Shown: piece by piece, positions 7,933 to 64,000 of the stretch
Layout: each line of letters opens with the position of its first letter
Position numbering within the stretch: position 1 is the first letter of the stretch
Origin: Psammoneis japonica
Lineage: Eukaryota
Direction: 5' to 3'
DNA: 64,000 bases
Assembly (NCBI GenBank): GCA_008632985.1
Contig: QPGO01000055.1
Coordinates: forward strand, 349,100-413,099
Position numbers and translations under genes: made by a program
The notes under the pieces: generated by a model
Database searches by the model: none
Told to the model about the DNA's origin: nothing
The model's input: only the letters and a program-made list of their open reading frames with translations

Positions 7933-8099
7933 TCTTCCGCGTGTGCTAGCGAAAGGATTGTTCGGAGTTTTGTTGCTGGATTCGTTGCGTCACTTTACAG
8001 TTTAGCTGCTGACAATGTGGCTGTAGCAACCCAAATGATGTCGTAGACATCTGGTTCTGTAGCCCATTGTTTCACCCTCAACATCAGCAAGACAGTCAT

Positions 8100-22195: not shown

Positions 22196-22439
22196 GATGC
22201 GGATAAGAGTACCTGTAACGGTATCGACAAGCGACAACGTGCACGGCATGCGAAGCCCCTGCGAAAGCCGAGCGCCATGCGCCATCGCCAGCTATGATGT
22301 GTGATGTGGCACAGGACGCGTGCGCTGTGGGGGGTGCGCGCCCTGTGATGAACGTCTCGAGAAAATGGGGGACATGCGCACTGCCACAGTAAGAAACTGT
22401 TCCACGACGATAAATTCCTGTCAAGTCTACTGCTTCTCC

Positions 22440-25400: not shown

Positions 25401-27010
25401 CTGGCATTGCCTCCAACCATGAGCACCATGTCAACATTTCTGCCACATCCTGTGTTTTTTCTCTTGCAGAATTTCATGATTGTTGCACAGACCCACTGCA
25501 ATTGTTTGAGTTCAATTTGGCGTCCTGGTGTGCCTGCATGGCAGCATCAAAGAACTTCTTCCCCAAGCCGGGCGCAGTTGCTGACGGCAATTCAGGTGAG
25601 CAGACATTTTGGCACATTGCTCAGCTTGGAATGAACCTTGGCCACCAAAGGACTCCATTCCATGGTGCTGCGGTGGAGATTGTTTGCCAGCAAAATGGCT
25701 GCAGTTCTTCAAAGGGTGCAAGCCTTGCATGAATGCCTGCGTGTCACAGAAAAATCATTGGAGGATGCTGTGTGCAAAGGAAAAACTGCAAACATGGTGG
25801 TTGAAAGCATCAATCATGACGGATGCGGCAGATGACAAGCGCGGTGTGTGTGGTTGACTCCAAATAAAAAAAAGATGCTGGAGCTCAGAGCTCAAAGATT
25901 TTTTTTGGTTGCAGATGCCAGCACAGGTGCTGTGCCAGTGGATGACCACAGCGCAGGTCCTCACCTTTTCCATTTGAGCACTGATTGCTTCACCAGGACC
26001 ATGGGCTAGCTGTCTTTTACAACTGAGTGCAGCTGTCAAATCATCTTTGTAAACAAATCTCCATTTTGTCAATCACTTGTGTTTGATCAACTCTGGATTC
26101 ATTTAACAAGTGCCAAATTGAAGACTGAACTCACCACATTTTGCACATGGCTGCAGCACAGACACAGCAGATCTGTGGGTGCTCTTCTGTTTTTCTTCTG
26201 TTGGGGTCACAACTTGTTGCAAAGTCAATGAACAAATTTGGTGTCAATGGTGACAAAGAACAAAGCAAAGAGACTTGATGAAACACAAAAAAGCAGGGCT
26301 CTTGTGTGAGGCTGTTTGGTGCAAAACCTCAAAAAGGAAGCGTTGTTGACTGACTCACACAGTGACAGAAAACCTTGATGCCAGCCCTGCAAGCCACTCT
26401 GAACAGATCCTCTGTTGGTGAAAATGCAATCAATGGAAACTCTTGTCTTGCTGTCTGGGATGCAACATGATTGAGCAAGGCCTCCATGTCATCTTCATCA
26501 TCAGCATTGCTCTGATTTGTTCCTTGCTGTGGGGTTTACAAATGTGCAACACACCTGCAGCTGCTCCTTTTCTGAGTTGTTTTTTACAAATGCTCTCATG
26601 CCACATCTGCACAGGCAACAATCTTCCAATTTGAGCACAGCTCCCACTGCTCATTTTCATGTCATGGTGGTGTTCATCCTCAAGCATCAAGTTCGGCTGC
26701 TCATCTTGCTGTTCTCTTGTGGCGAAGATGTGCTGACATTGTTGCTCACTCTCTAGAGTTCACGGTGTTCCCTGCAATGACAAAGGCTTCCTGCTTGACT
26801 TGCAATGTCAAGGCTTTCCCAGATTCCACTGCAATGGCCTGTCCCGAGGAAAAGCTTGCATTTTTTGCTGTGGCTGGGATGCAACCACAGAGGAAAAGAT
26901 TTTCCCAAATCGTCGTCTGTTTTAATCCCTGGCTGCAGATGTTGCGGTGGACCTCCAGTCGAGTGCAAATAATTTGAACGTGGAGGATGCTCCACATCAC
27001 GCCCCCCTTT
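22440..27010. mobile_element. Old hypermutated repeat or TE-derived block (TpA- and CpG-depleted); family not identifiable
   Basis: No TpA found by eye between 23110 and 24705 (about 1.6 kb). CpG is rare and TG/CA is in excess. Confidence 0.55.
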
Positions 27011-28579: not shown

Positions 28580-31500
28580 CTTGTGGCGCTTTTTTCCCCG
28601 CGACGCGGTTCTTGTTTCTTTGTTTCTTTGACACGACCTGACATCACCAACCGCGTTGCACGACAGACCGATGCGAACTTCCGGTCCTGTCCGTCCGTCA
28701 AATCCGCGCACAGGCGATCTATGTCCGTGTTCATCCCGAATGTTTCTGGGAACAGCTGCAGCAGTGAAGCCTTCTCTGCATCAGCTGTCCATCAGCCACC
28801 TGACAAAGGTGATGCCCCTGCATCTGTCTCATCAGCTCACCCATTTGGGTCTGTGTTTCACCATTCTTTCGGCACACGACATTTGGCTTCTCTCCTTCTC
28901 AAAGCAAAGAAGGCACAAATCTGTGCTGGAGCTGGTCTGCCACTTTGTCAATTGTCACAACAAGCAAGAGAAGGCAAAGGCACCAACAAGTGCAACAGTT
29001 TGCAGAGGCCACACAGCTGGCACTTGAGCTGGCACTTCTCTCAAATCTGCCAACACTGTGTCCACAAAAGACAAGTGAGTGGTGGAGCATGCACTGGGCT
29101 GGCCCAGGTGCTTGCTTGCACAGGGCACAAGGTTGCAGGTGGGTGCTCACAGAGTGTGCCACCCTTCCACAATCCTTGGGAGTGCTGCAGGAGGCCAGCT
29201 TGGTGCATTGCTGACAGTGGTCTTGGCTCAGACAGAGGAGTTGTTGGCTGGGCCAACTCCAGCCAGAGCTGACAATGATTTGGCCAAACTCCAAGGTTCT
29301 TGATGGCTTTGATCATGAAGCCACTTTTTGTTGTTCTCATGGACTCTGTGGCATGGTTTGGTGCCATCTTTTCCAGAGCTCCCTGGCTGCAATTTGCCAC
29401 AGTTGTTGCCACAGACAACCCCGTGGATCACCAGCCAGCCAATGCCACACACTTGCTGCAGGCCAAAACTTTGCAGTGCACAGGGCTTTTGTCATTTTTA
29501 AGATGTGTTGATGTTGCTGCATGTGCAAGAATGGCAACAAGTGTTGCTGTTGTTTGCAACTTCAGGACAAGAGAGGGAAAATTTGGTGCACTTTGGCACT
29601 CACTTCAGACCCGTTTTGTTTCTTTTTCTTGCAAGAAGCTGCAGGTGCCTCAGCAAGGTCAAACCACATGGACCAAAAGAAACTGGGTTTGCTGAGGGTG
29701 ACACAACCAATGCCACAGCAGCCATCAGGGTTGTCACATTGTCAGTGAAAACATCAAGATGCAAGCAGATGGGAAAGATTCCAGGGAATTTCACAAAAAC
29801 ATGAGTGGCGGCCATCTCTGCAAAGGCACTTGGCATGGTGGCCAGCGCGTTGTTGTTGAGGCAGCACAGCACATGGCAATTGCCACTTGCAGACCCCACT
29901 TGACCTTCATTTGTTTTTGATTCCTTGCTCCTTTTTTTGCAGGCTGCCAGAGCATGTCAGCAAAGTTGGTTTCAAGTTGTTGTTGGCAACCTGGGTGCAC
30001 TTCAAGCTGGCAGCAAGTTTGATGTTTTCTTGTTGTGATTGAGAAAGAGTGCAACAGACAATGTCTTCCATGTTTGTGGCAAAAATGATGAGTGAACAAA
30101 TGGTTCCTTGCAGTGCTCCACAGTTTTCATGAACTTGACAACTTTTTCACCACATTTAAATTAAAAAAATGTGGCCATGGACAAAGCCCCAACAAAGCCA
30201 AATGTGGCAAGGAGAAAAGAACAAACCACACATGATGTCAAGAAAGTGCCAATGATCAACTTGATTGCACGGTGACTTGAGATCAAGTTGAGCAAGAACC
30301 AGTTGTCTGGCTCTGGGGATTTGTGCAAATCAGGTGACAGAGCAGTGTTTTTCTTCTTTGAGTTCATGAGAGTTGAGTGGGGAAGAATCTTGACACAATT
30401 GGGGCTTGTTGATGCAACCAGCCAGAGTGCAATTCTTTCATTTGTTGAGTTGCTTTCATTGGTCTCACATTTTGCAGGGAGGAGAATTCAAGATGGGAGC
30501 TCATTGTTTGTGAAAGACATCAGATTTGCCTCAATCCAGACATTTTGTCTTTTGTGAAGTGGGGTCTGTTGGGAGAACAATGTTGCAAGCAACTTGAATC
30601 ATGGGAACAATCATTCATGGATGGCATCAATGAGCTTTGACATTTTGCAAAGATCTGAGGAGCAACCAAGCAACTCGGCACAGCTGCGCCAATGACCCAG
30701 CTGGTTTTTCTTGCTTGAGAGTGAAGTTTGTCAGGAAGATGAGGACAGAGTTTGCTCCAATCTGAGTCAAGGTTGGTGTTGGCATCTGCAGCCCAAGCTT
30801 GACTCCATTCAGACATGAGAGATTCCAACTCAGGAGGAGCACACCAAGGAGTGCCACAAGACTGACTCAGCTGCTGCAGAAGCAGCTTCAGGTGCCAAGA
30901 TGCTTTGTGGCAAGATTTGCCAATGGGAAAGCAGAGCACCAGATGTTCATCACAATTGCTCCTGAAAAAGCTGCAGCACATTGACGGCAGTGCAACAAAA
31001 GCTTGTGATGAGTGATCAAAATGCAGGAGCACCATCATTGAAAAATTGTTTTTTAGAAACTTGCCAGCTGCTTTTCCTGCTTTGTTTGGCATCAAATGAT
31101 TGTCCCAAGATTTTGCGTCTGCGTGAAACAAGGCCTGTTCCAGCTCCAGGTGACCTGCAATCCTTTGTGCGAGATGCCAGCCAAAAATTGCACTTGGCAC
31201 AATGAACTCCTTCAATTTTGCTCATTTCAAAAATGGAGAGGTGAGCAAACACAAAAAAAAACAGAACTTTCATGTGCACTCACCCTTTCTTCATCCCAAG
31301 TGTTGCTGGGAACAGAGCTGCTGCAATGCAGCCATCTCTGCGGCAGCTGTCCCTGAGCCACCCAATGCAGTGAGGTGATGAAAAATTTGCATCATGAAAG
31401 GAGAAGCCTTGTTCAACACCTTCTCTCACTTTGAGCTCATTGGCATCTCTGACTTGCTCCAGACTTGGGTGGCATGTGCATGCCCCTTTTTGCCCAAAAA

Positions 31501-34480
31501 GAATGTTTTGTGCTTTGTTCAACATGTTGTCAACATTCAATTGATGTGGCCACTTTAATGGCTTGCAATTAAAACAAGCAGGGTGAGTTCAAACCAACTT
31601 ACAGCCAAAATGGCCATGGCTTTCAGTGACCATGATGGCCTTTTTTTTTCAGCCTCGTGGAAAATTGAATGTCATGATGAGGACCACAGCATTTTACATG
31701 GTCTGTGTCATCCACCGCTGCAATGAAACTGCTTGTCACCGGCTGCAGCACAGCACAAAAAGACCAAATCTGTCAGCGCCAAGAACAACTGAGCCTCAAC
31801 TCACAATTTGCTTCTGAGGACCATTGCTTTTCTGTTCCCATGTGTGTTTCCTTCTTTTGTTGAATTGCTCAAGTGTGTCAGTTGTTTGTGATGACAAAAC
31901 AGTGAAACAGTGTCCAAAATCAACGCCATTGTGTGGGCTGAACTTTGCTTCTTCCCACATCTTCTGAAACTTGTCAATCAGCGCAAGTTTCATTTGGTCC
32001 ATTGAGAGCAACTTGTCATCAAGTGCGCCAACAAAAGATTGTTTGTGTCTGAGCAAAGAGCACACTTGATGTCATTTCTGTGCACATGAGTGCATTTTTT
32101 GTGAATCGCCCATCTTGTGACCAAGCTCATCTTGCGGCACAATTTGGTGATCGACAACTCAGTCCATCCTCAGTTTTGAATGTGTGGGTGCACACATGAG
32201 ACCTTTCTGCATGTGCCCACAACAACACATTTGCAAATCATTGCACTTTGAGCATTGACAATTGCACCGGAAATTTGGGCTGCACATTTCACACAAAAAG
32301 GGGCATTTTTTTTTGCGCATGTGCACACCTGAGTCTGGAACAAGTCCTCTGGTCTTTGTTCTTTTTACAAAACACACACAGCTTCTTCTTCCTGGAACAC
32401 AAGCCAAAAGAAAACAGATGAGTTTGCATGAAGTGAATTGCCTCTTTTGCCACTTGTTGGAACAAGCAAGAGAGTGCAAGGGCATCAACAAATGCGGCGA
32501 TTGCAACAACCATGAAATGTTGCCGCTCAACAAGCTTGGTGTTTCTTGCTTCTCTCAAGTTTGTCAGCAACACATGTCTTGGATGCTCTCAGGCACAACA
32601 AGGTTGCAGATGAAAGCTCACACCATGACAAGCAGAGGAGTTGTTGGCTGAGTCAACTGTTGGACTGACATCATTGCACACAGCACCGCTGTGTGGACTG
32701 TGCACAAAAACTTGAGTCACAATGACCAAGATGATTGTCCTCAGGATTGCTCAATGAAGAGCCACACCAGTGCATTTTGTTGGCCTCTGTTGCATCAGTC
32801 CTCCAACAGACAGGCTCCTGTGGAAACCAGCCAGCCACACGGGGATGCATCTTCTCACCTTTGGGTGTTCCTTGGCATCAGCAGGGACCTCACCACCCAC
32901 CTTGGCACCCTCAAGTTCTGCCACTCCAGCCTCTGCAGAATTTGTGTGTGAGAACCGGCACTCAGCCTGCGCTGGCTTTGTGACCAGTTCCTGTGACCTT
33001 GGCTGATGCTTTGGCTGTCCCCATGCAAATTGCGTGTTGGCTGGCCAGTGACTGAATTTTGCGTCCATGCAGCACCACGTGGCACACCAACAGCAACACA
33101 GCATGCAGAAACGGTCAAGGGCAGAGTGGACAAAGACATGCATCCATGGTTCTTGGGGAAACTGTGGTGCCAACTGTGATTGGCCAAGCACAATTTGGCA
33201 GAAGCACCACCAATTTGCTCCAAGAGTGGCTCGCCATTTCTTTGGAGGCATTTGCTCCACTGGTGTGCTTGAACCACTGTGACAAGGTGTCAACACAGCA
33301 GAGAAATTGGAAAAGGACAACAACATTGCAAGGCAAAGGAGAAAGATGTCAGCAGAGGATGCTGCGCCAACAAAGTGCACTGCAACAACAAAGGGGGAAA
33401 TGGTTGGAAGGAACCAATGATGGAGCAAGGATGGGATCAAGAAGGGCAATGAACTGCACAAGTGGGCAATGAAAGACTGGGAGGAGAACAAAGAATTCAG
33501 GCAGTGCATGGTTCAAGGAATGGAGGCAAGAGAAGGCCAACTTGTCCAAGCAGGCAGAGAAGAAATGCAAGAAGGGGGAGAAGAGGAAGGAGAGAGAGGA
33601 TGGATGGGCAGCACAAATTGCAGCAAGTGATGAAACCTGGAAAACAGCAAACAAACAAAAAGGCAAGCTGGCACCCAACTCGCAGCAAAGAAAACATGGC
33701 TGTTGCAACTGTTGCATTTAAAGCAGCAACACAAATGCATGAAATGTAGGGTGATGGATTGCAAGTGGCAATGGAGGTGATGAAGGAGTGATGAGCAGCA
33801 AACGTTAAAAAGCAGGGTTGAGAGTCAAATCATGGGCATGGATGCTCGCACTTCAAAGTGGGGTGTGGTTTGGGTTTTAGAAGTTCACAAACTTTGCCAG
33901 TTCTGAACCAATGTTTGAGGGCAAACTTGGCTCATAAATTCACAAATGAATGAGATTAAAGACAAGAAATTGCCAGATTGTGACGGGCGGTCAGAGACCC
34001 AGATCATTGGCACCCCAGATGAACTCCTCTTCCTCAAGCTTTTTTCCAGAACATCATGCCAGAATCAGCTGCTGTCCAGGACAAGTTATAACATGATCAA
34101 AAGATTAATTTTTCAGGTGAGATGATGGAGAGAAAGGAAGCCAAAAAGATGGCAAAGGGCAAAGCTCGTTGTCGAGACACAGCGAGAGACTGTGCAGCAA
34201 GAAAATGTTGAGGCAGGATTCGGGTGGGGATGGGGATGGGGAAGAAGGAACTTCTGACTGACACAGTTGGCAACATTTGACTAACCTGTCTTCTGTCAAT
34301 GGTTTGTTACAAAGGGGCATCAGCCTTGTTGCAGAGTTACGTCTTCCATTGTTGACACCAGAGTGCCATCGTGACGGACGTGCGACGTGCAATAAAAAAT
34401 GAATCGGCGACTGAGGGAAGGCAGGGGAAATGGGCAATGAGCACATTGCAAAAGCTTTCAAAAAAAAAATGAAAGATGTC
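28580..34480. mobile_element. Old hypermutated repeat or TE-derived block (TpA- and CpG-depleted)
   Basis: About 1.3 kb (32368-33718) without a TpA by eye. Contains two copies of a dispersed repeat also found at 36917-37095. Confidence 0.6.
29125..29325 (+). repeat. Dispersed repeat, copy A (homologous to 36917-37095 and partly to 32598-32650)
   Basis: Shared blocks GCACAAGGTTGCAGGTG (29125 and 36917), TGATTTGGCCAA...GTTCTTGATGGCTTTGAT (29276 and 37045), and CAGAGGAGTTGTTGGCTG (29233 and 32633). Confidence 0.85.
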
Positions 34481-35436: not shown

Positions 35437-35929
35437 AGTACTCGACGCCTACATTGAATGAGGGCATTAATCGCCAGGAGAGATTCGTACAAGAGGAGTC
35501 ACTCTGCAAGGTGTGGCTACAGCTGAGTACTCCACCCATTGAAAGACAATGACATTATAGTTTCGGAATGCCATGCCACTGCGCCCACTTTCGTACGAAC
35601 ATGAGCCTATTTTACACATCCTATTTACACCCGTTCCTCCGCAGTTTGAGATGTACCTTTATCCGTTGGCCGAGGGCCCACAATAACATTCACATCCGAT
35701 CCACTTTATTTCGCTTTATGTCCCGCAACAATCATTCTTCTGACAATGAGGAGTACTTTCGTTTCTTCCCAGCGGTGAATGGGGCACTTGCGTTGGTGTT
35801 GCTGTCAGCCACCAAAATTATCCCAAAAAGCCGCTGGGGTTCTCCCGCAAAAGTCCGTACAAAGTATTGACTCCGCGGGCGGGTTGCGTCTTATTCACCA
35901 GATTCATTGCTAGGAATCAGGTCGATTAA

Positions 35930-37200
35930 AACCAACGAAACGCGCACAATTTTGGATGCTGAAGGTGTCGTTTGGCGCATTGTGTGCCGACCCAATGCAT
36001 TCAAGTCCCTCCAATGCTCAATCATGCAATTGACATCTTCACAAACTTCACCATTTTCATCTGTTGCACAGATCTTGACATTTTTCAGTGCAGCATTTCC
36101 TTGTTTGAGCAACTTCATCACAGTCCATTTGTCATCCACCTTTTGGGCCATTCCAAGGTGGAGGGTGTGGGTTGGTGTGTTGAACAACAGATGGTTGCAG
36201 AAAAAGGACCAGTCCAAATCCCATGGTCCCTTGAGGTTTAGATCCTCAAAATGCTGGGTTCACTGACCAAAGTCCAAATGCATGCATTCTCAAGTTGTGC
36301 ACTGTGGCAACACATGTGCGCGTCTCAAGCAATGCATTTTTTGCACCTTCTGCAAGAGGAAGAGCAATTCAGTTCCAAACAAAAAAATTTCAACTTGGCA
36401 CTGACAGCCAATCTTGATTGCTGATTTTTGCCTGGCAACTTGTGGTGGCAACGTTCATGGAGTGGAATGTCATGGCCAGAAAAATTCCCAACTCTCACTT
36501 CAAATTGGTGGTTGCCAATTTGTTTCCAGTGTGATGCAAAGCATCGCCAAGACAGACAAAAAAGGCATTGTCAGCGCCTTCATCCAATTTGGCACAACTC
36601 ATGAGAGACACGCTTCTCCCATTGAAAGCAGCCAGTGCCTTGTAAAAATGGCAGACTGAGCAACTCAATTGCCTTGGGCAGCTTTGAAGGCAAGGGAAGT
36701 GAATGGGCAACAACCCAAGTTTTGAAAAAGACTTCATTGGAACATTTGCTGCAGCTGATTGCAGGAGCTTCAAAAAGGCTTCTGACTCAAATTGGACCAT
36801 GTGGTAGAGTTTCACAGACTCAATGTGAGGGATGACTCAAGCCACAGCAACAGCAGTCTGTTGATTGATCGTCACCTGTTTTTGCTCAAAATGGGTGTGG
36901 TCAAACAAATCTGCAAGCACAAGGTTGCAGGTGCGTGCTCTCAAAGTGTGCAACTCCTCGCTCCCCACCACAATCCTCGGGATCACCACCGCAGCAGGAG
37001 GCAGCCAGCTCAGCATTGCTGAGCTAACTCAGGAGTTGACATGGTGATTTGGCCAACACACCAAAGTTCTTGATGGCTTTGATTATCAAGCCACTCACAC
37101 CGTTTGGGTGCTCTGGCAGAATGCGTGACGTGAGTGTCTGCGGTGTCTGTTCCCGCGCGCGAAAAAGACACAAAAGAACCGCAAGCGGCAGGAAAGGATT
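35930..37200. mobile_element. Short hypermutated repeat-derived block
   Basis: Near absence of TpA. Contains dispersed repeat copy B. Confidence 0.55.
36917..37095 (+). repeat. Dispersed repeat, copy B
   Basis: Aligns with 29125-29325 and retains two TpA (37025, 37084) that are CpA in copy A. Confidence 0.85.
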
Positions 37201-41398: not shown

Positions 41399-44300
41399 TT
41401 ACACCATGAGGAGCGCAACCGCCGAACAAGCCAAGAAAAGTGTGCTTGGAAGGCCTCTCAAACGGAAAGACCACGCGGATGAATCGTCTCGTGAGCCAAA
41501 AAGCGGTCGTTTCGGTTCAGCTAATGTTGTTCCCTGCGCGACGGAATTCTCGACACCAGGACTGGGCGACGCTGTTTCGATTGTTGGCTGCGTACTCGGC
41601 TTCAAGGATTCTTCAGTACCTCCGGGAGTAACTTCTTGGCTGGGCATTACTGTACTGGGAGCCAACGTTGGTAGGACTGCTTGACTTGGTATTGCAGTAC
41701 CTGGAGAAACTGTGGGATTAGTGCTCGGCTCTGTAGAGGTCGTCGAGTTCTCTCCTTCGCCTGGCGCGCTCGGCTCTGTAGCATTATTGGATGGAGAACC
41801 AGCCGGAGGAGGGGTTTCAGTTGCAGCGGGTGAATCTCGATACAAGTCACTTGCGCTGAAACTAAAAGGAAAATTTCCACGATTAGGACAGATCTTGTCC
41901 AAATCGGAGGATTCCGTGACACCAGACCACTGTGCGATTGATGGCCAAATTTGATCCCAGGCCGTTGTTGGGATTAGACGCCCTCTCCCGACGCTAAGGG
42001 TGCTCGTGTCAGACATGTCGGAAGGATATTCTCCCAAGATTCTGCCACCCTTGACGGCTCCGCCCGCCATAAAGTAGTTCCCACCCCAACCATGATCTGT
42101 GCCAAAGCCACTGTTTTGAGAAAGCGTTCTTGCAAACTCTGATATCTGTACCAGAGTCGTATGGTTCCACATGCCGAGCAACTTCATTTCCTGCACAAAG
42201 GCTCGTAAACCGGTGTTTACCTCTCGAAAGCGGGTTTCAAGACTAGTCTTCAGATCGGCATGAGAATCAAAGCCTCCAATCTCTACATAAAAAATATCAA
42301 CATCAGTTCCTCTGGATTCTCTCGTCTTGATCATCTTTGATACCATTTGAAGCTTTCTCCCCAATGGAGTTTCACCAAAGTCAGTTTCCAAATCCGTGGA
42401 TTCAACTGTGTCGTACAGATCTTGGTTCTTGTCCAATGAATCAAGAAGCGAATTTGACCATGTTTCTGCCATAAAGCCACTATCATAGCTGGCGGCACTA
42501 TTGAGTGCCTTGATTGTGTCGACCATTTTTGGTTTCGTCATGGATATCGATTCTTGAGGAATGAATCGCTTCACTCCATACTGGCTGACAACCGTATGCG
42601 ATGGCGACACGCCTGGCTCTCCGGATAATGCACTAGATGTTGTGTCTATGGAAATCAATCCCGCGGAGAGGCCTTTGCGAGTCAACGCATCGCTCAATCT
42701 TCCAAGGACGCCGATACCAGCCGCTTGCTGGAAAAGATCGACACTCCTTACTTCTCGCTGCATTGAATTATGTGAGAATAGGTCGGTGGGATTGTTTGCC
42801 TTGTAATTTTCACGAGTAGACGGACGTCCCAGAACACCAGCATTGGCAAAGAATAGTAATTCTTCTTGGTTGTAGAGATCTTGAACAATGGGTAGCTTTT
42901 CATGAACGCCAAATGTTTCACAGCCGACTTGCCCGCTTCCATTTATGGGGAGAAGCTCTTCATGCAAAAGATGCGCGGGGTTACCTGTTGCGTGGTAGAG
43001 ATTGGGAGGGAGACTGTGAGAGCCTTGCGTGAGCCGTGTAAAACATCGCGAAACAACTTACGGGCATTAACATAGTGCGTGTAGGCGTCATCGCCTGTAG
43101 CAGCAGTGCAACCTCTTGGTACCAACATATTGAACGAGTCACAACCACCCGAAAGCATGAGATAGACTATGGCCTTGTACGAGCTGCCCCCATTCGAATG
43201 TGACTCCTCGCTTTGTCTTGACTTCCCAGTGGGCTTGACTGTATTGGTTGTTTGAAATTCGGGTGTAGTGACAATCAACTGTTGCACGAGACGCAACGCC
43301 GCCTCTGCATTCGTCGCTTGCAGGGCTTCATCATATGCGTTCATCAACAGTTGGCGACTAGATGAATGTAGACGGCCCGATGTAAGGACTGTGGCAAGCT
43401 CATCAATGATATCACTGGTTGTTGCACCAGTGGGGGTAAAGGTAAGAATACCGGTTGCTCTGTTGTACTGACCATTGTCGGCACATTCACCAGAACCAAC
43501 CTCGGGAACGCTGGTGTAACCAAACCCGAATTGAACGTCATTTTCTCTGTAGCACTCGGATAGTCCATACTTTATCAATGCAAACAAACCGTCAATGGTC
43601 GCAAGGTTCTTCGGCGCATCCAGCATTTGCGCCTCAGGTGCCACCAACGACGCACTCGACACGCGGCCATCAGGAGCAAACTCGGGAAGAAAAAACGAGA
43701 AAACGGACTCAAACTCATATGCCATTTGGCCAATGAAAGTATCAATGTCATGAAAGATGATCATTGGAGTTTCTCCTTTGGCGCCGCTGTCTTTCATTCG
43801 AAAATCCATTCCGCGCATGAAGGCAATCACTCTCAGTATTGGTTCACGGATTGAACCGTGAGAAGGATCTGCGTCGAGAATAGGCATAGCTGCCTCGCGA
43901 TCCAAGACAATTGCAGCTACAGTCGAAGCCAAATCTCCATAGCGCCCTGTACCAAACGTGACTTCCCCGGCTTTGTACGTCCCGGTTCGAAAGGCTGTAG
44001 CGCATGATTTCACAAACCTGGGACTGGGGTTTGACATGCCAAAGCGCTGGATGAATCGAACGCACAAGAACGGCGCCGTGTTGTCGTGGTAAAAGTAATG
44101 CTGCAATGTCGCTTCAGTCTCGTACATGGCATCACGAATGTTCGTTTCTGATAGCACTAGGCTCATAAAATGTACTGGATTTCGAAATGAAAAGGTCGAA
44201 CCCTGAACCCCACTACCAATAACAACGGTGGACTTCGCATTCTTTAGGAAGCGAATACGGCCCACAGGATCCAGCACCTCAAAAATCGTGTCCGTGGTAT

Positions 44301-47300
44301 AGTTGTCAGCCGGGTTATGAACCTTGAAGTCATTCACAACCGTCGTAGTGTATGCGCCAGGATCGAAAGTGCTTGGATCTGGCGCCCCAACGTGCAAAGA
44401 TAACAGGATTGACTCTGAGCTATTTGGTTGGCTGGTAAATACAGCTGTATCTTCAACGAACGCGTCGCACAAGCAGTTGACTCCCTCAACGGTCGCGCAG
44501 TCACCACAATCGCTCTCTTCCTGCTTCGGGAATTGTCCGTTCTCCCATTGAACTTTAAAGTAATTTTGCGTGTCATCGTTAACATGAAGAACCTTTCTCT
44601 CTGATATGAAGGTAACATTGTGGACGATGGCAACCAACCCATCTGGGTTGACTTTTGCTTGTATACTGCAAGGCGCAAACGCCCAATGGAATACCACATC
44701 GTTCTTCCAGAAAGGCGCATCCGCGTCAACGCGACGATACTCGCAGGATTGGAGGCCTCTTGCCTCACAGCGAGCATTCTGAGTAGCAAACGTCATTCTC
44801 TCTATGTCATATCGTATATCTGAAACTGCGTTGGAGCTATTTCGACCGCTTTCGCAGCAAGCAGATGTTGCGATAGGGAGAAGCGGGTTTCCACACATCG
44901 GAGAACGAGCTTGATATTCACGATTCAGCTTCATGGCGTCGTTATAGAAAGCCATTTCCACACATGCAGGTCGCACATATTCATAGAAGATATCTTGTGA
45001 CATCTGTACGACACGAACTGTATCAACATCGCATTCTTCATTGTCGCAAACTAGGTTTTCATTCAGCGTGACTTGCACTGGAAAACTGCAGCCCTCTCCA
45101 CGGTCATCACAAAGAACAGAAAAGAGAGAGGAAGTTTGGTTCAGTGTGAACCTTTTGGAGAAGAGGGCGTCATCCGTCATTAGCTCTGGAAGTGGTGAGC
45201 TACCGAGAAGTCTATACTTCGCCCCCTTCCTAAGGAACTGCCTTTCCGGAAGATCAACACACAGTGGATACCCATCACCAATGAACCCTCCATAGAGGTC
45301 TGACTTTGGAAAACGATCACGCCATTCCGGAATTATTTTCATTGGATCAATTCCATTGACTCTGTCGGGTTGTTCAGTGTTACCGCGAAGATTTTGTCGA
45401 TCGAAACCAGTCCATGCTCTCGCTAGCGATCTGATCTCGTCGTTTGTGTATACCTTTTGGGTGCTATTGTTTGCGTCGAGCTTTGGGGTGCCGTCCAAGT
45501 TGAGCAACACTAACCCAGTGGTAAATAACTGCATTATCTCTCTGGCAAAGTTCTCGTCAGCAAACTCACGTTTCAAACTTTTGTCGTACACATATGCTTG
45601 GGATTTGGACTGAAGAAAGGACAAGTTCTCTGCCATTAACGCATTGTAGCTTATTCCTCGCAAAATATCGAGATAATCACCTACGGCATTCCTCACGAAA
45701 AGGTCATAGAACTGAAGAAACATCTCGGTGCTCTTCCCCTCAACTTTCACGGAGTCTAAGGCAATCACAAGTATCTGGCTCAGTGCAAATGCCATCCTTT
45801 GTCTTAGCTGATCCGGAGCATTCATCGCAAGCATTGTCCAGACGATCTCACGGCTTCTCCCATATTGATTCCTAAAGGTGGTGTCTCTCAGATAATTGGA
45901 TGACAAATCGAACTGTGATCCGTTCTCAGCATTGTTCGCCACTTCACCTGGCGAACCACAGACAACACGGCCTCTTCCTCCGCGACTACCACTTACGCCG
46001 TAGTATTCAGCAACATTGTCCACTCGTAGCTCGTCTGTGAGATCCAGATAGTTTATTGAATCTCCAAAGCGCCCTATGTAATCGAATTTCTGGCGAGTTG
46101 AGTCCCATCGAGTCATGGTATGGTCAATTGAACCGTCCAACGGATGCGTGCTAGGGTACACAAGAAAGGGCGACCCCTCGTCGAGCCATTTCTTTATAGG
46201 ATGGTTCGATGCAGGTTCTCTCGCTTCAGCATCGACATTGCCGGGGTGTTCTTGAGCCCAGGACGTCATGTCAAAGATGGAAAGATGATCGGGGTGGACA
46301 TGGGTCCAACAGTCGGGACCCACTTGGATCTCGATTTCGAGTTCTACGTCAATATCGTCGCATTCTACCCCGAAAGAAGGAAAATCGATATCGCGGACGT
46401 AGAGATTCCGGTCGGTAGAACTCAAGATGAGTCTTTTCAGTACAGTTGCGGTCCCGGGGCTTACGCCTGTCTGGTTAGCGCAAGTTCTGCCAGCATTCCG
46501 TTCCCAGCGACTACGAACACCAGGAGTACAGGGATGATCAATCTCGTAGCTGAATTCTTCCTGTTTGACTTTCAACCCACGAATTGCATAAACATACCGT
46601 CCAGTCAAAGCATGGAGTTGAACAAGATTGGCAGCGTCAAGGTCGATGAACGTATCCGGAGGTGGCACCGAACCACACGTATTGTCGTCCATACTCAAGA
46701 CGCACTGGCCACTGTTTTCAAAAGTCCGTGGTACGTTTGCACAGACAGTAGCACCATTGGTTGCATTGGAAATAGAGCCTCCACCATCAAGCATAGGAGA
46801 GTCGACAGTATTCTGCTCAAGTACAAGCCGGGGGTCCCACTGCAACAGACCAAATGTAGGATGACGGAGAAATATTGGTGGGTCGAAATCCTCCGCTTGA
46901 GAAGGGAAGTTACGACACAAGTCATCATTGAGCCCGCTCGTTAGAATATATCGATCATCGTTTCGGGTTTTGCCGCCGTCTTTCCATTCATCAATTACAC
47001 TCATTGTCGCATTTTCAGGCGCATGAATGACATGGTCGCCGAGGTAGCTTTCAAACCCAGTAAAGTTGATGGCTGGATTGCCAATATCTCGATCGATTGT
47101 TTCGCAAGTGCCACGCTCCTTTCCATCATATGGCTTGGTCTGCAAATAAAGCCTTCCTCGTACGTAGTCAAAGGGTAGTTGACAAATCTTGTATGGATGA
47201 TTCGGATCCCAGTGCGGGAATAGATCTTGAATGCGTGGCTCATCCCATGCGAATTCTTGCACGACCGTACGGGCGTGTCCTGATGGCAAGGAATCAAGAA

Positions 47301-48430
47301 CAAGTATTAGAAAAGAGAGCGGTGAAAAGGAGAAAACTGCAAAAAATAAGCAACGTACCGTCCACAAGGAGTATCCATGGTCCGGTGGGAATGTCTCTTC
47401 CATCGGTTTCATTTTTAGCAAAGGTTGTGTTTTGAACATAGACATAACCAGAGGCAAATCCGTCTTGCTGGTGTGCATCCTTGTCGGTAAATGTAAACCT
47501 ACGCCATCGCGAATTCGCGTCACACGGGCCATCGGATCTTCCAGCTCGCTGTGAAAACGTCCACTACAAAAAAAAAAGGAAACGCGGCAAAAAAGATGTG
47601 AGATTCAGATTGCTATTCAGTATTCATGACCAGTCACGTTTTTTTTTAAGACTTACTCGTGGATTTGCTCTTTTTCGCCAGTACTCTCGATGACTGGAGA
47701 GTGGTATTTGCATTTGCTCTTGAACCCAGAGAGCGCGGCTTGGAAACTCTTGAATGGATTGGATGTCAGACCGCCGTGTACCAAACGTTGTCATTTGAAG
47801 AAAGCGAGCAGCCTCTTCTGCTGCAGAAAGAGTATATTGGTAGGATGATAGCTGATATTCTTGATTTTTCGCAACACTTGGCAAGTAAAACGAGCAGACG
47901 GCATTGCGGCATTCGATCGGACCAGTTTCTCGAAAGACCTCGGATGCAATCGATCCGGCCGCGACTTCCCAGTCATAATAATGATAAGAACGAGCAAGGG
48001 GTACCACAGCCGTCACGTTGCCCAGTTCATTTCTTTGAATCCTCGTTAACGTGCACAGGTCTCCAAAGGTTGACAGTTGAAAATGACCTCCAGCTGCTGG
48101 TAATGTCTTGATACCGTCAGGAGAAGGGCACGTCCAATTAGCGTCGGTGCATTGCTTCTCGACAAGTGAACGACCCACAAATAACGTCTTGTTGCTGGCA
48201 CTAATACCAACTCCATTTTCTGTGCATATCGATCCGGGACAGCAGTCTGCGTCTTGCAAACAAGTTGCAGGATTGGTGCATTCTGGAGCTGCCGGTAAAC
48301 AAAACGTGCCGTTCCATATGCAATGGATTGCATCGTTGCATACTTGCTGAGAACTGATTGAAACGCAACTATTCACTGCTGTTACTCCATATGCAATCAA
48401 TAACAAGAAAACAAAGACAAAGTAACGCAT
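41399..48430 (-). CDS. Full-length DUF1800-DUF1501 fusion protein (about 2255 aa) with signal peptide and S/T/P-rich, hydrophobic C-terminus
   Basis: Exons 48430-47657, 47548-47359, 47279-43062 and 42984-41399 sum to 6768 nt, in frame. Signal peptide MRYFVFVFLLLIAYGVTA, then a Cys-rich segment, EAARFLQMTTFG, and the same DUF1800/DUF1501 motifs as the paralog at 1-5227. Confidence 0.9.
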
Positions 48431-56524: not shown

Positions 56525-57317
56525 CTAGAACCATCCCTGTCCATCTCCAAAAGGAGAAAAGTGTCCCGCAGCGGCCTGCTCGGCAAGGTTTTGTCCGGTA
56601 AAGACTTCGTGGGTAATGGTACCGGCAATGGCCATCATGGCGGCACGTCCGTTGTTAAGTTCGGCGTTCATCTGACGGACCTTCTTGGCGGGTTCCTTGT
56701 CCCAGTTGTTGATCTTTCCTAGACGCACACCATAGTCTCCATCGAGTTTGGATGCTGGCCACCAGGCGAGCTCAATAAAACCGGTGACAATCAGAATCTG
56801 CAAAAGACCAGCAGGAGGGACCTGAAAGAGACCACCAATACCCGTATCGATATCAGAGAACTTGAGGTTGTTGGAGGGTGAAAGGTATCCATCGAACGTC
56901 CAGTGGTTGTTGTGGACGAAGGTTCCCAACATAGCCATCATGGCAATGCGGCCGTGCTTCTTCTCGACGGCACGGTAGCGAACAAACTTCTCCTCGTCCG
57001 TAATGTATCCGAGAGGATCAAAGAATCCGAGAGGAGCCGTGGCACCAATCTCCATGTCAGCCTCATTGAGAGCAGTGGAGGACTTTGCCGCCTGAGGAGT
57101 ACAGAAGTAGTATTGCACGCGTCAGGTGTAAGGAATGCACAACATGAGACATGAGAGACAAACAAGTCATGAGAAATACAGATTAGAATGCATCTCGCCG
57201 CACCAAACGCTTCTTTCATCAGCTCTTTCATACACACACACAAACACTCACCGGAGTGTTGACAGGGGCAAAGGCGGCGGCAGAGCCGAGAAGAGCGGCA
57301 AGGATAGCAAACTTCAT
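56525..57317 (-). CDS. Fucoxanthin-chlorophyll a/c light-harvesting protein (LHC/FCP), about 210 aa
   Basis: Exon 1 (57317-57252) encodes MKFAILAALLGSAAAFAPVNTP; intron 57251-57092. LHC motifs GFFDPLG, EKKHGRIAMMA, ELNNGRAAMMA. Confidence 0.95.
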
Positions 57318-58554: not shown

Positions 58555-60620
58555 TTAGCTCGTTTTAGTTTTTCTCACGGACTGAAACTTGAGGAATATC
58601 ATTGCCAAGACTCGGAACCCAGCAATAAGGGCGCATAAACAGCCAACGTTGCGCCATTTGTGGTCGACGTCCCACGAAAAGGATTCCAAAACTGCTCTAC
58701 CAAGAACTCCCTCCGTTTCCCAAATCACAATCATCACACCTTCGTAACCATATCGAACAAATGATAGGTACGACAGCCAAACAAACCAGGGATCAATGTC
58801 GTCAACATTGATAAAGAGCCCGCCAAATATCACAAGCGGCTGCTCTCGCGAATGAAACAATTTGTCAGATCAACGGCTTTCTTTCATCCTTTACATATAA
58901 CAACGGTCCCAACTTACCATAAGCAATAACGGACCCAAAGCCAAAGCGACACCGACATTAGGAGCAATTGTCCCAACGAAGTATCCGAGAGATACTGCAC
59001 TAACTGCAGTCAAGACAATGAACAAAGCGTACGTAAAAAAGGCCCCGGCCCCTCTTCCTCCAAACCCAACCAGAAAGTACAAGATTGTGGCAAAAATGAA
59101 AGGAAACACCACCTGGAAAGGAAACTCTGCAAAGGATTTGCCAATAAAGTAGGCTGACGTCGTGTATGAGTTTGCCGACGTTTCACGCAGAAATATCGGC
59201 TTTTCAAGCGGGAACACTGCAATACGCCTAAGGTACCTAAGATACCTTGATTCAAAACAGAAAAGAAAAGAACGCCGTTCACTGACTGGACGTTGTCAGG
59301 CTTGATGGGCGATTTGCCAAGCGAAACGAAAATCACACCCACCAACAAGCCAAGAATAATGGATTGCCCCAGACGCATCCTTCCGAGCGTTGCGTCACGT
59401 CTATATGTCAAGATGGTCCTCTTCATTAGTTGACTGAGCTGGGTACACCAGGACGCAGCATATTTCTTCTTTGCGAGCATAAGCTTCACCGTCGAGGCTC
59501 TTCTTAGCTTTCTTTTGTCGTCACCATCCCCGTCAGCATCTTGTCCGCCCTCGGAACGCTCGTCCCACTTATCCAAGACATTCTCCGAGACACCTGGAAC
59601 GCTTAGAAGCTTCAGATAGTAATCCGCCGGATTCAAGAGTGGCGGCAACGGCTTCCCAATGGATGCAAAGTGCTCAATCGCACCTGATGTAGTGCCCGAG
59701 TAGGCCGTCCTTCCGTCTGCTAGTAAATGAAGCTTTGTAAATGCGGAGAAGACATAGGAGGATGGCTGATGAATCGTGGCCAAGATCGTATGTCCCACCC
59801 GAGCAAGGCGACAAAGCTTTGCTACCACAGCTTCGGCCATGTGGCTATCTAAACCCGAGGTTGGTTCATCAACGAAAATAACCGAAGGATTCGATAGCAG
59901 TTCCGTAGCTAGGCTCAAACGCTTTCGTTCCCCGCCAGAGATCCGTCCTTGGACAAGTGCACCAACCCCTCCAATCGGTGTGTTTGCGCACTTAGTCAAA
60001 CCGAGCTCGTTCAAAAGCCCATCGACTCGGTCAAATTTATCTTCATCAGACACACTCCTATCAATACGAAGGCGCGCTGAAAAAATCAAGTGTTCTCTCG
60101 GAGTCATACTCGGGATGAATAAATCTTCTTGTTGGACGAAACAAAAGTTCGTTGAATCGCCCTGCAGGGTTTCATAGATGGGTACTCCATTAAAGGATAC
60201 GTAACCACTAAAGGATGGCTTCTGACCCGCTAAAACACTCAGGAGCGTAGTCTTTCCTGCACCAGAGCTGAACATAAAATCCATACGAATGCGGTATATT
60301 TGTAAGAAAGAAAAGATGGAACGATGGAAAGGCGGGGTAGAGAGATTGACTTACGGCCCCATGATCGCAAGTAAGTCTCCTGGTCCTGCTTCTCCTCCGG
60401 CTCCTTCCAACAATACCTTGCTCTCGCGGGTTTTCTTAATGTCGACAGAAAAAGACACGTCATAATTCAAATGCACAGGCTTTGGCTTCTCCAACTCAAC
60501 AGCGTCTGGGTCCTCCATAGTGTCAGACAATAAGCTCGTCCCATCCAAACGAAAATCTTCATACGTTTGTTCCTGCTGCTCCACGTCAATTGCAGTTTCA
60601 ACGTCCTCAGTGGCTGACAT
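58555..60620 (-). CDS. ABCG (White-like) half transporter; one-base frameshift near 59216
   Basis: Introns at 60354-60268 and 58917-58840. GPSGAGKT Walker A across the splice, ISGGERKR signature, VDEPTSGLD, TIHQPS, and a C-terminal TM domain. The frame breaks at VLQ/(V)FPLEKPIFLRE. Confidence 0.9.
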
Positions 60621-60942
60621 GATCAAGAGCACTAAAGATAGTGAGAGCACACGTACGCTATGGTTCCTGATGCTCGAAGCTCGAATAGAAGTACTCTGGG
60701 AGTTGCATGAAAAATCGAAATTTTCATTTTCCCCTGTTTTTCTCGCATTTTCAGGATCGTGCGAACAGCACGCATGCCGATAGCCGATGCTGCCGACTGC
60801 GGTGCCGAGGTGGTAGCCCGTACTCTGTATCGATGTAGCCAACAGCGGAGGCTACGCGGTGTCGTTGTCAACGATGTTTTATGGATTGAAACTAAGACGT
60901 AAAGACACTGCTGTGCTAAGAAGTAAGAATAATGCAATTAAA

Positions 60943-62077
60943 CTAATGTTCTAAACTGCTGGTGTTTCTAATGACAGCCGCCACACTTGTCCTTGTTGCT
61001 GCTGTGAAAACCAAAACAATGTAAAATGAAAAGAAACGCCGCGCACCCTGCTTCGCCACACAAGCAGTGCCGTCAATCAACATAACCTTGGGGCTCTCCA
61101 TAGAGCGGTATGTTGAGTCCTCAGCTTTGAGGTCAACACATGCAATTCTTGAACCATCCTTGCCCCCCAAAAGATGAACCTTGTTGATCTTTTTCGACAC
61201 TTTGATGGGCAAAGGAACAGTGGCTGTTGACGCCAAGACATCGCTGTCCGACAACCTCATGGAGGACAACTGATCCGAAAGTGCCTCTGGGCGCTTGTGC
61301 ACATCCCTGAGCTCTTGGTCTCCTTGGGATTGTGCCTCCTCCACCAGCACAGCATGGAGTGAGTCCATGTCCATGCTGTGACCCGGCCACTCGGAGGTGC
61401 ACTGTAAAAACCAACCGCCACCCGTCACCGCGAGCTTGAAGCTAGAAAGGTCCTCAGTGCATGCTCCTGAGGGAGCTACAATCACCAGCACCACATGGTC
61501 TGTCTTGTTGACAGAATCCTTGCAGGTCGCCTGCAAAACCATGGGCTTGAATGTCTGGTCGTCCTCAAATGCTGGGGGGTCCAAAGCAGTGGGGGCGACA
61601 GCTGCAAAACTGCCGGTTTCCTTGGCTGACGGCAGGCCGACGTCGGCTAAGAGCTCGTCCTCGTCCATGTCGAGGTCTTCCCCTTTTGAAACAAGTGGAC
61701 AACAGTCAAGAGAAAAAAAGAGCAACATGAGAGTGCATTCTGTTTCATTTGACAAAGTGCAGCATGTGGCGACACTTGCTTCCGCCAGTGCCATCATCTG
61801 CCGGTGGCGCAGCACTGTCATCAGCGCTTCGTTGTCACAGGTTGAAACCAGTTTCTTTCCTCAGCTTGCACAGCTGAGTGCAAAATTTGGCAAGAGGACA
61901 CTTCAAAAACTCTGCACGCATGGACTGAACCTCCTTTGGTGACGCTCCAGGATTGATCCTTTTTTGCAACAGGAGATCCCTGAGCAGCATCCAGTCGGGC
62001 GAGTTTTTTCGAAAGGCGGGAGGCGGCTTCAAGTCAGTGCCAAACACTGACTTGCTCCTTGTGTTCATTGTCACCAT
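60943..62077 (-). pseudogene. Accessory ORF of the Harbinger-like element (disrupted)
   Basis: Exon 1 (62077-61780) has a premature TGA at 61837-61835. An intron at 61779-61683 with a GCAAGT donor joins in frame to EDLDMDEDELL.... Tyr is absent through the core. Confidence 0.55.
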
Positions 62078-62358
62078 CGTGTGTGTGTTGGTCACTGTTC
62101 TCAATTTTATGACGAGGCAAGCTGCAAATCCTCTGAATGCGTGTTGCTCACTCGGCACACTACGGCAAGGTTCGCATCGAATCCCGAACTCCGATTTGAA
62201 TTGTTCACGACCGTCTCAACTCTCTCTTTATGTGGGACAGTCAATCCCACACATGCAAGTCCCGGCAAATTTGAAATTGCCACAACCGCCAAAACCAAAA
62301 AAAGGCCCATCGGGGGGGGCTGTTGTGAAGTGTTGGAGCTCAAGATTCCCTTGCACAC

Positions 62359-62838
62359 CGTTCCAAAAGCGTTCCAAAAGCGTTCCAAAACCGTTCCGAG
62401 AACGTTCTCGATTGCACCAATTCGCGCGGAAATCAAACTTTGGAGCCTCTTAATCTGGCAATGAGACACATGATGCATTGCAGTTGGTGCACTGTTGTTA
62501 GAACCATTTGAGCATGGCACAATGGTGTAAAAGTTTAACAGATTAGATGGATTTATTGCAAAAAGGTGCACCCGTCAAAACAGGTCACCATTTTCTCTAA
62601 GAAAAAGAACGGCTGTTAGAAGTCTCAATGATTTTGATTTACAGTGGCTGTGAGTTGAACTGCAAAGTGTTGTTGTAACTGCTGGCATTGTTTGACACTA
62701 AACCACATCTACAACAACCGCCAATGGCTCCAACACGGAAATGCCATTCGACGAAATGGGCATTTCATCATTCCCGTGTTTCCACCGTTCCGGGACCGCA
62801 CCAAAAGCGTTCCGAAACCGCACCAAAAGCGTTCCCGA
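62359..62838. repeat. Two clusters of 11-bp CGTTCCAAAAG-type repeats in the transposon spacer
   Basis: 62359-62410 has three to four units ending in the palindrome CGAGAACGTTCTCG; 62785-62838 has CGCACCAAAAGCGTTCC twice. Confidence 0.8.
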
Positions 62839-63032
62839 AGGGAATCTCTCTAAAAGGCCTGACATCAGAGCATTGTTTTTAGACGTTGGAAACGAATGAG
62901 AACCCCACCCGACCATCAATCCACCTGTGATGCGGCAACAAAAACACTGCTGCACGGAACTGGCGCCGCAGCAATCTTGTCAGCATGTGACATGAAACAT
63001 CATGCGCGCAACACACGTCTGTGTTGCTCACC

Positions 63033-64000
63033 ATGCAAATGCGCCTGCCCAAAGCCACAGCAGATTATCTTGCGGGGACAGTCATCCAGAGGCCGATGAG
63101 GTCACAACGGATTTGGAACCGCAGATTTGCCTCGTGCTTCTGCTCTCCGCGAGACGCAGTGTGTGAGTTGTGGGGCCTTCTTGAAGATGATGGCAACATC
63201 CCACGCGGATTTCTGCCCACTCATTTGTTGCACACATTTTGTTTTCTGAAACTGCATGACACTGAAACCACAATGGCCAGAATCTGCGGTGGCACACACG
63301 AGGATACGTTGAGAAAATGGGTGTGGGTTGGGATGGCGCTAATTGCGAATTTGAACTTGGTGCGTGCCATGACTCCAATTTCTCTTTGAAAATCAATGCA
63401 CTGACATTTGATTCACCATAATTTCATCACAGATTGATTGGGAGAACAGGTTTGTGGATGACAATGGCAGTGCATGCAAGGTGACGGTGGACGGCACTGA
63501 CTTTCGCATCAACGAACCATCGCCGTTCGATCCCATCTGGCATTCGCATGAATTCAACGGCGCAGGGCTCAGGTGCGAAATCGCCACATGCATTCAGACA
63601 GGTTGGACAGTTTGGGTGAATGGCCCCCACCCAGCTGGCATTCCTGATTTGAGCATGGCACGAGAGGCGATCAATTGTGAACTTCAAGATGGAGAGTTTT
63701 GCTCAGCTGATGGGGCATGCAGTGACGGACACCAGTGTTGTGTGGCCCCGACCGGCCTGCGCAATGCCGACCAACACATGAAGACCGTCGCTCGCGCCCG
63801 CCACGAAGCTGTCAACGGTTGGTTCAAGCGCTTCCAAATGATGACAAGAACGTGTCGTCATGATCGATTGACGCATCACCTTGCCTTCCAAGCAGTGGCG
63901 AACATCACACAGCTTTCCATTGTGATGGGACACACACCCTTTGAAGTGGAATGCTCAGATGAACAGGAACCCATTGAGAAATTAGGACATTTTGCAACAT
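63033..64000 (+). pseudogene. Harbinger/ISL2EU-type DDE transposase, hypermutated at TpA
   Basis: Exon 63033-63359, intron 63360-63432, exon 63433 to beyond 64000. Motifs HLL..FLKL.DTE, TLRKWVW, VTVDGTDF (D1), ADG (D2), RARHEAVN (E), AVANITQL. Confidence 0.85.

Follow-up and report, generated by a model that had tools for sequence, protein, structure and literature searches.

Introduction

How does a transposase exon come to be open over 189 codons and to encode no tyrosine at all? This question is raised by the 3′ end of a 64,000-nucleotide stretch of Psammoneis japonica DNA (contig QPGO01000055.1, positions 349,100 to 413,099; the whole stretch is referred to here as the window), which, judged from its sequence, is one copy of a multi-copy, two-gene DNA transposon of the PIF/Harbinger type. 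A first-pass annotation had described a Harbinger-type transposase at this place, with Tyr recoded to Cys or His, and had attributed the recoding to a DNA-level TpA mutator acting fast on a young element. We find a mutational signature at the dinucleotide TpA that arose independently in different copies and is restricted to the element, and we consider it highly likely that a TA-specific transition process acted at the DNA level on this copy after its insertion. TA-specific hypermutation has already been described for Bigelowiella natans, in a preprint of 2026 (Mettrop et al., bioRxiv 10.64898/2026.01.13.699255), and the locus is a clear new example of it with added detail.

Tyrosine loss in an open DDE domain

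Exon 2 of the transposase (63433..63999, plus strand), which carries the DDE domain, comprises 189 codons and stays open up to the end of the window. It encodes 0 Tyr, 11 His and 10 Cys and contains a single TpA (63983), 32 CpG and no stop, as had been read in the first-pass annotation, and the motifs quoted there (WHSHEF, GLRCEI, GWTVWVNGPHP, FCSADGAC, TCRH, FEVEC and FLKLHDTE) are all present. Given the median Tyr content of homologs (3.5%), the probability of finding 0 Tyr in 189 residues is 0.0012, and at the TpA frequency of the host coding sequences (CDS) of the window (0.038) the TA-free run at 63420-63982 has a chance of about 3e-10. Over 63412-64000, the observed-to-expected ratio (o/e) is 0.06 for TA and 0.80 for CG, and it rises to 1.61 for TG and 1.72 for CA.

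The assignment to the Harbinger-type transposases holds. An exhaustive phmmer search returned 2060 relatives at E ≤ 1e-3, 29 of them at E ≤ 1e-30 (best E = 2.8e-48, 55% identity), and the Pfam family DDE_Tnp_4 is matched by 13 of 30 aligned family members, the window copy included (best 4.4e-15). Exon 2 retains D20 (VDGTDF), D93 (ADGAC) and E125 (ARHEAVN) at columns that are invariant in 30/30 aligned sequences and that we take, from the family literature, to be the catalytic triad. The match of the window copy itself to DDE_Tnp_4 (PF13359) lies below the 24.8-bit gathering cut-off (196-aa open reading frame (ORF), E = 0.0018, 18.4 bits), and the 189-aa exon 2 matches no Pfam family at E ≤ 0.001. 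This sub-threshold score is plausibly caused by substitutions at conserved columns. Among longer proteins only, a homolog search by word index gave no matches.

The substitutions were compared with a panel of 150 cluster representatives of the transposase family. Column 40 has Lys in 145/150 homologs and Glu in the window, and columns 48 and 96 have Tyr in 130/150 each and Cys in the window, so that K40E, Y48C and Y96C fall at columns that are 87-97% conserved. Likewise, Ile is found in 127/150 homologs at column 59 (Thr in the window) and in 126/150 at column 75 (Met in the window), whereas Tyr is less common at column 37 (71/150; His in the window) and at column 174 (65/150, with gaps in 41; Cys in the window). 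At these seven columns the homologs bear out the expected forms; at the GPHP and TCRH sites the expected Tyr has weaker backing, the majority residue being Phe (66% and 63%, respectively) and Tyr accounting for 19% and 20%.

In a reversion test, each CA or TG of exon 2 was set back to TA, and a more than 2-fold better fit to the profile of the 150 homologs was counted as an improvement. The fit was improved by 18/64 non-synonymous reversions to TA, as against 13/213 transitions in other contexts (odds ratio 6.0, p = 7.9e-6), which bears out the claim that the differences are TA-centred; for reversions to CG the count was 10/74 (p = 0.05). The improving reversions include H37Y, E40K, C48Y, T52I, T59I, H66Y, M75I, C90Y, S91L, C96Y, M136I, C141Y and C174Y. 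By outcome, 12 were TG-type and 6 CA-type; both types are present, and both strands were therefore hit, as had been proposed.

The same replacement is seen elsewhere in the family. Of the 150 homologs, 6 lack Tyr altogether, and 12 carry His or Cys in at least two of the four columns where Tyr is conserved. The choice between His and Cys at these four columns varies from copy to copy, the window reading HCCC and the homologs P0001, P0007, P0008 and P0096 reading CHHH, FHCC, HCCH and CCHC, respectively.

Extent of the TpA loss

The loss is not confined to the transposase exons. A TpA-depleted tract that holds both genes of the element extends over 61110..64000, with an o/e of 0.15 for TA, 0.73 for CG, 1.49 for CA and 1.58 for TG; its GC content is unchanged or raised. 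The tract has 26 TpA in 2891 bp, and 12 of them lie within 260 bp (62451-62710) at the centre of an insert resembling a miniature inverted-repeat transposable element (MITE), where the TpA density is normal. In 1-kb windows, the o/e values of TA and of TG/CA are 0.14 and 1.51 for 61001-62000, 0.25 and 1.42 for 62001-63000, and 0.09 and 1.68 for 63001-64000. The predicted intron of the transposase and the DNA between the two genes are TpA-depleted like the exons. The flank at 60000-61109 has 53 TpA in 1110 bp, a normal density that is kept up to 61109, and TpA is also normal in the neighbouring host genes, the host ORFs of the window having a CpA+TpG frequency of 0.144, a CpG o/e of about 1.0 and a TA o/e of about 0.6.

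Copy-specific outcomes

As a stand-in for a consensus of all copies, we used the contigs of a public sequencing run that holds the locus (X1). Of these contigs, 621 were aligned, 193 at ≥99% likeness, 193 at 95-99% and 235 at 90-95%. Over the host genes their depths add up to about 58; beyond about 60.7 kb the sum rises to 560-1700, which places the element at about 10-30 times the host depth. In that sample, the element thus forms a multi-copy family whose members have diverged.

Among 40 of the 93 contig differences, 35 lie at or beyond 60700, inside the repeat. At 20 of these 35, the window has TG or CA (12 TG and 8 CA sites) and the other copies have TA, against a chance expectation of 18.7% (p = 5e-7). 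A further 6 affect the other base of such a dinucleotide (5 are swaps between TG and CA), and the remaining ones are 1 TA>CA, 1 CpG change and 7 others. In total, 27 of the 35 concern dinucleotides that read TA in one copy and TG or CA in another, which is the independent outcome in different copies that the first-pass annotation had suggested looking for. For instance, position 63550 is A in 6/6 contigs (AAA, Lys40), position 63719 is A in 8 contigs (TAC, Tyr96), and at 63853-4, where the window has TGT, other copies have CAT or TAT.

A search of metagenomes with a 5-sequence alignment gave 80 loci. The TA o/e of their transposases spans 0 to 1.1 (median about 0.53), and it is 0.22 or less in five of them. 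Two related loci, L053 and L026, have 1 and 15 TA, respectively, over 720 aligned bases, and among their 109 mismatches 11 are TA>TG/CA in one direction and 0 in the other. For the pair L008 and L011 the corresponding counts are 52 and 31 in 668 mismatches. Six other near-identical pairs were either too similar or without directional bias. L008 and L011 carry the same two-gene element, and their transposases differ by Y>C, I>M and V>A.

Sequence context of the surviving TA

The TA dinucleotides that survive in the TA-poor tracts of the window have a distinct context (Y, pyrimidine; R, purine). YTAR accounts for 28/50 survivors as compared with 16.5% in host DNA (p = 2.5e-10), and RTAY for 1/50 as compared with 33.5%; in terms of trinucleotides, ATA and GTA are down 50-fold and TTA 6-fold. 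Because the survivors are mostly YTAR and RTAY is nearly gone, a preference of the mutator for purine-T-A on each strand is suggested. The survivor context was also checked in 13 of the metagenome loci. In the TA-poor L053, L009, L014 and L048, YTAR amounts to 42-57% and RTAY to 0-14%, and in the TA-normal L043, L060 and L019 to 12-16% and 35-39%, respectively. The picture is less clear in L010 (YTAR 25%, RTAY 27%) and L026 (29% and 13%). Given this survivor bias in Tyr-poor relatives from several metagenomes, we suggest tentatively that the hypermutation system could also operate in organisms other than the single species from which it has been reported.

Comparison with TpA hypermutation in Bigelowiella natans

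The preprint reports TpA hypermutation of integrated viral DNA in B. natans (Mettrop et al., bioRxiv 10.64898/2026.01.13.699255). According to its main text, 231/302 nuclear mutations in a mutation accumulation experiment fell in integrated giant-virus and virophage regions, 230/231 of these were A>G or T>C, and all these GC-biased changes were on TpA; they arose de novo in the integrated foreign DNA, at a rate of about 6e-7 per site per generation. The same text describes 124 clusters of TpA-poor, CpA+TpG-rich kilobases in the genome, reports that TpA-poor CDS are enriched in the Pfam families "DDE-superfamily endonuclease" and reverse transcriptase, and proposes an ADAT2-like deaminase as the enzyme, from sequence and predicted fold.

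The likeness to the locus studied here is close in what the preprint describes. In both, the changes are nearly all from TpA to TpG or CpA, on both strands, foreign or mobile DNA only is affected, and the outcome is clusters of kilobases that are poor in TpA and rich in CpA+TpG. By window thresholds of the B. natans type, 3/3 of the kilobases given above are TpA-poor, and one is CA+TG-rich with the other two nearly so, where our o/e may differ from the Rho of the preprint. The low-TpA CDS class of B. natans has a mean TpA of 0.0018, which is the value of exon 2 here, and the CDS of the two hosts are close in composition (TpA 0.041 and CpA+TpG 0.137 in B. natans; 0.038 and 0.144 in the window), although this closeness is not diagnostic. 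The targets differ, those of the preprint being single-copy giant-virus and virophage inserts, and the one here a multi-copy DNA transposon with copy-specific outcomes.

The words 'CpG', 'trinucleotide', 'purine', 'context', 'flanking', 'Harbinger' and 'tyrosine' do not occur in the main text of the preprint, and islands co-depleted in CpG, the YTAR bias and the recoding of Tyr to Cys or His are therefore undescribed in that main text; its Figure 2B and Tables S2, S6 and S10 may bear on them. Our literature search turned up TpA>CpA/TpG depletion of mobile DNA in no source other than bioRxiv 10.64898/2026.01.13.699255.

Proposed process and its effect on the coding sequence

We propose that, after insertion, TpA in the DNA of this copy was changed to TpG or CpA, which would amount to an A:T>G:C transition hitting the A of one strand or the other, and that the process would have run near saturation and been confined to mobile DNA. 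In coding terms, Tyr (TAY) would become Cys (TGY) or His (CAY), Ile (ATA) would become Met or Thr, Leu (TTA) would become Ser, and a T|AAA codon junction would become T|GAA, so that Lys is replaced by Glu. The outcome would be an open but crippled gene, with changes such as K40E, Y48C and Y96C, and Tyr-less, Cys/His-rich open genes of this kind are very probably dead.

The change of TA to CA or TG creates neither TAA nor TAG, gives TGA only from TAA, erases stops and causes no indels. Because no new stop or indel is added, an open frame is the expected end state and is silent on speed or age; the part of the first-pass annotation that saw in it a fast process on a young element is thus not sustained. 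On the other hand, its central proposal, a DNA-level TpA mutator, is supported by the reversion test, by the variation in the choice between His and Cys, by the paralogous copies and by the mutation spectrum of the B. natans experiment as reported in the preprint's main text. The enzyme may be a DNA adenine deaminase of the ADAT2 type, and the process may act as a genome defence, with targeting by silencing marks or small RNAs.

Alternative explanations

The same DNA-level process at TpA might have its chemistry on thymine, for example if the T of TpA were enzymatically oxidised or modified and then mispaired or was wrongly repaired (T>C). From sequence, an A>G change cannot be told from T>C on the opposite strand, and the two outcomes are similar in number (12 TG and 6 CA in exon 2, 12 TG and 8 CA in the contigs). 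Strand patchiness of TG versus CA was absent in 100-nt bins, without over-dispersion either in the islands (chi2/df 0.83) or in host DNA (1.16). However, the locus offers no support for a T-modifying enzyme, and the candidate named in the preprint is ADAT2-like, though from sequence and predicted fold only. We regard a thymine route as improbable.

Selection against TpA or UpA, through mRNA stability, codon usage or nuclease avoidance, or a lineage in which His and Cys occur naturally at these positions, would also yield TpA-poor genes. UpA is indeed under-represented in most coding DNA, and the TA o/e is well below unity both in the host CDS and, at the median, in the transposase family. Yet the changes seen here are non-synonymous and fall at columns as conserved as K40, Y48 and Y96, paralogs of the same sample keep TA at such sites, the choice between His and Cys differs between copies, and non-coding parts are depleted too. 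This explanation is very improbable.

RNA editing of transcripts, by A-to-I conversion of the ADAR or ADAT type at UA, followed by reverse transcription and re-integration, has the least to recommend it and seems hardly credible, in agreement with the first-pass annotation. Changes on both strands would fit the editing of double-stranded RNA (dsRNA). The element, however, is a DDE cut-and-paste transposon; AA is not depleted (o/e 1.24), though ADARs also edit after A; and the intron and the intergenic DNA are depleted with the predicted intron retained, which argues against a route by edited or processed RNA. The preprint notes that ADARs usually prefer an A that follows a U, but in its own experiment the mutations appeared in situ, in integrated DNA present as a single copy (bioRxiv 10.64898/2026.01.13.699255).

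Fungal repeat-induced point mutation (RIP) was rejected, the direction of change in the tract being the opposite. An assembly artefact was likewise rejected, many contigs of the run showing the same pattern.

Several points weigh against a TA-specific process acting on the DNA of this copy, or against its attribution to an ADAT2-type enzyme. Evidence for the enzyme in the window is nil, and the identity with the B. natans system would be one of signature only. The purine-T-A preference is unlike the anticodon-loop context Y32-U33-A34, which we take to be the natural ADAT2 substrate. The recoding that had also been noticed in exon 1 stands at H75, the sole convincing site, where 39 homologs have Tyr, and not exon-wide, the reversion test being non-significant there (6/32 vs 21/123, p = 0.80) in an exon that is poorly conserved. 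Only 3 of the 18 exon 2 reversion sites are among the contig differences considered above, and the rest may be common to the copies or fall among the other 53 differences. Besides, a single sample, possibly the assembly source of the window, supplied the contigs, which represent paralogs and not independent individuals. Finally, about 360 bp (about 60750-61110) are high in depth but normal in TpA, so that the borders of the tract and of the repeat do not coincide.

Other TA-depleted DNA in the window

Four further islands, together 14.8 kb, are poor in both TA and CpG (15529-20535, 22429-26536, 28721-33718 and 35928-36642). Their o/e is 0.04 for TA, 0.17 for CG, 1.90 for CA and 1.80 for TG, at an unchanged GC content of 0.48, and the transposase tract is distinct from them by its CpG (CG o/e 0.73-0.80). 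The borders of the islands to normal DNA are sharp, and residual CpG is highest in GCG/CGC. By self-BLAST, they are not copies of one another within the window. Among 74 island ORFs of ≥100 aa, none matched a Pfam family at the gathering score, the only weak match, to DUF5393 (E = 0.0045), being below the cut-off, and a search of the ESM Atlas gave no usable match for two island ORFs.

It is possible, and proposed here tentatively, that the recognition of the mutator is wider than TpA alone in including the preceding purine (purine-T-A), and that the mutator is one arm of a two-step erosion of silenced mobile DNA that also loses CpG and ends as TG/CA islands.

Another tract, at 5600-9575, is TA-poor (o/e 0.22) with normal CpG (0.95) and without Pfam matches. 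Within it, units of about 33 nt are repeated in tandem at 7374-7893, where TpA and CpG number 6 and 90 per kb, respectively. The tract may reflect either the same process or a low-complexity coding repeat.

Structure of the element

The two-gene element occupies the last 3 kb of the window and runs past base 64000. Its left end, at about 60.7-61.1 kb, is ambiguous: the high-depth repeat region begins near 60.70-60.75 kb, yet TpA keeps its normal density as far as 61109. In one contig, 60799 is joined directly to 61085, with omission of 285 bp with 17 TpA, a segment that may be missing from other copies.

Exon 1 of the transposase (63033..63359, plus strand) comprises 109 codons from the ATG at 63033 and has 3 TpA; it reads FLKLH where homologs have FLKxY. 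In 55/80 metagenome loci, a tblastn match to the exon 1 region lies directly upstream of the DDE match. The exons are separated by a predicted phase 0 intron of 73 nt with GT..AG borders (63360..63432, plus strand) and a single TpA at 63419. The predicted splice restores the frame of two ORFs that are offset by +1, and the resulting junction (..IANLNL|IDWENRF..) aligns with that of homologs without an insert at that place; other database homologs read through in frame at this point, over a similar length. None of the contig joints listed bridges 63360-63432, and in a further run, X2, exon 2 has almost zero cover.

The second gene (60943..62077, minus strand) is divergent from the transposase and runs from an ATG at 62077 down to about 61.0 kb. 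Its N-terminal part is in the frame of the ORF at 61838-62215 and its C-terminal part in that of the ORF at 60943-61860, with a frame change near 61.7-61.85 kb that may be an intron or a frameshift. Relatives of this gene adjoin the transposase in 6/80 metagenome loci (L017, L008, L011, L065, L003 and L022; tblastn). A homolog search gave 7 homologs, all without Pfam annotation, and no Pfam domain was found in the second gene or in its less mutated relatives.

The MITE-like insert (62343..62848) lies between the two genes. It has perfect terminal inverted repeats of 10 bp (62343-62352 and 62838-62847) and subterminal 11-nt repeats, and belongs to repeat family D1. Because 4 contigs diverge with a loose end just left of 62340, the insert fits an independent mobile unit. 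It may have been inserted after the mutagenesis or have been spared by it.

Host neighbourhood

Two paralogous large genes with DUF1800 and DUF1501 domains lie at 1307-5227 (plus strand) and 41399-47604 (minus strand); they are inverted, 36 kb apart and 72-82% identical in nucleotide blocks. Other host genes of the window encode CobW, SET, ABC transporter, GST/glutaredoxin and cNMP-binding kinase proteins. The contigs of X2 omit 47279-47357, 57091-57250, 58840-58917 and 60268-60354 (79, 160, 78 and 87 nt, respectively). Each of these segments is bordered by CT..AC, the reverse complement of GT..AG, and is located inside a host ORF of the minus strand; the joints occur in none of the X1 contigs. 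The run X2, recorded as 'DNA?', thus behaves like complementary DNA (cDNA), since its contigs omit GT..AG segments that X1 contigs do not, and the omitted segments are likely introns.

Comparison with other mutators and with the family

RIP in Neurospora and other fungi is likewise a mutagenesis at the DNA level, made up of transitions only and specific for a dinucleotide, by which genes in mobile or repeated DNA are crippled. It changes C to T mainly at CpA, and by this it enriches TpA, lowers GC and makes stop codons. In the element described here, by contrast, TpA is destroyed, CpA and TpG are created, GC is unchanged or raised, and stops cannot be made. Dependence on repeats belongs to RIP, whereas the main target described in the preprint is single-copy.

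Hypermutation of the deaminase type, after which edited copies stay in the genome, is also known from the editing of animal retroelements by APOBEC3 (C>U, on DNA) and ADAR (A>I, on dsRNA). Those enzymes act on reverse-transcription intermediates or on RNA, in contrast to a cut-and-paste DNA element of which the predicted intron and the flanks are affected as well.

With known PIF/Harbinger elements the locus shares a homologous transposase with conserved D-D-E columns, an accompanying second gene, multiple copies and a MITE-like unit nearby. It differs in that the second gene is without a recognisable Myb/SANT domain and in that the transposase of this copy falls below the Pfam cut-off.

Implications

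The locus provides an independent confirmation, at the level of sequence, of a TA-specific mutator of DNA that acts on mobile DNA. It extends the two viral inserts of the preprint (bioRxiv 10.64898/2026.01.13.699255), as presented in its main text, to a multi-copy cut-and-paste transposon, in which an ancestral TA is seen as TA, TG or CA depending on the copy. For annotators, the length of an ORF in such a tract says nothing in favour of function, and if the wider, two-step reading were true, erased stop codons could seed long artificial ORFs. The protein footprint of the process, that is, a Tyr-less, Cys/His-rich, open and very probably dead gene, may be used to find its victims in any protein database. 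The retention of YTAR and the loss of RTAY would be a testable constraint on the enzyme. Overall, an adenine deaminase that acts on DNA with a defined context would be of interest both to the study of genome defence and to the engineering of base editors.

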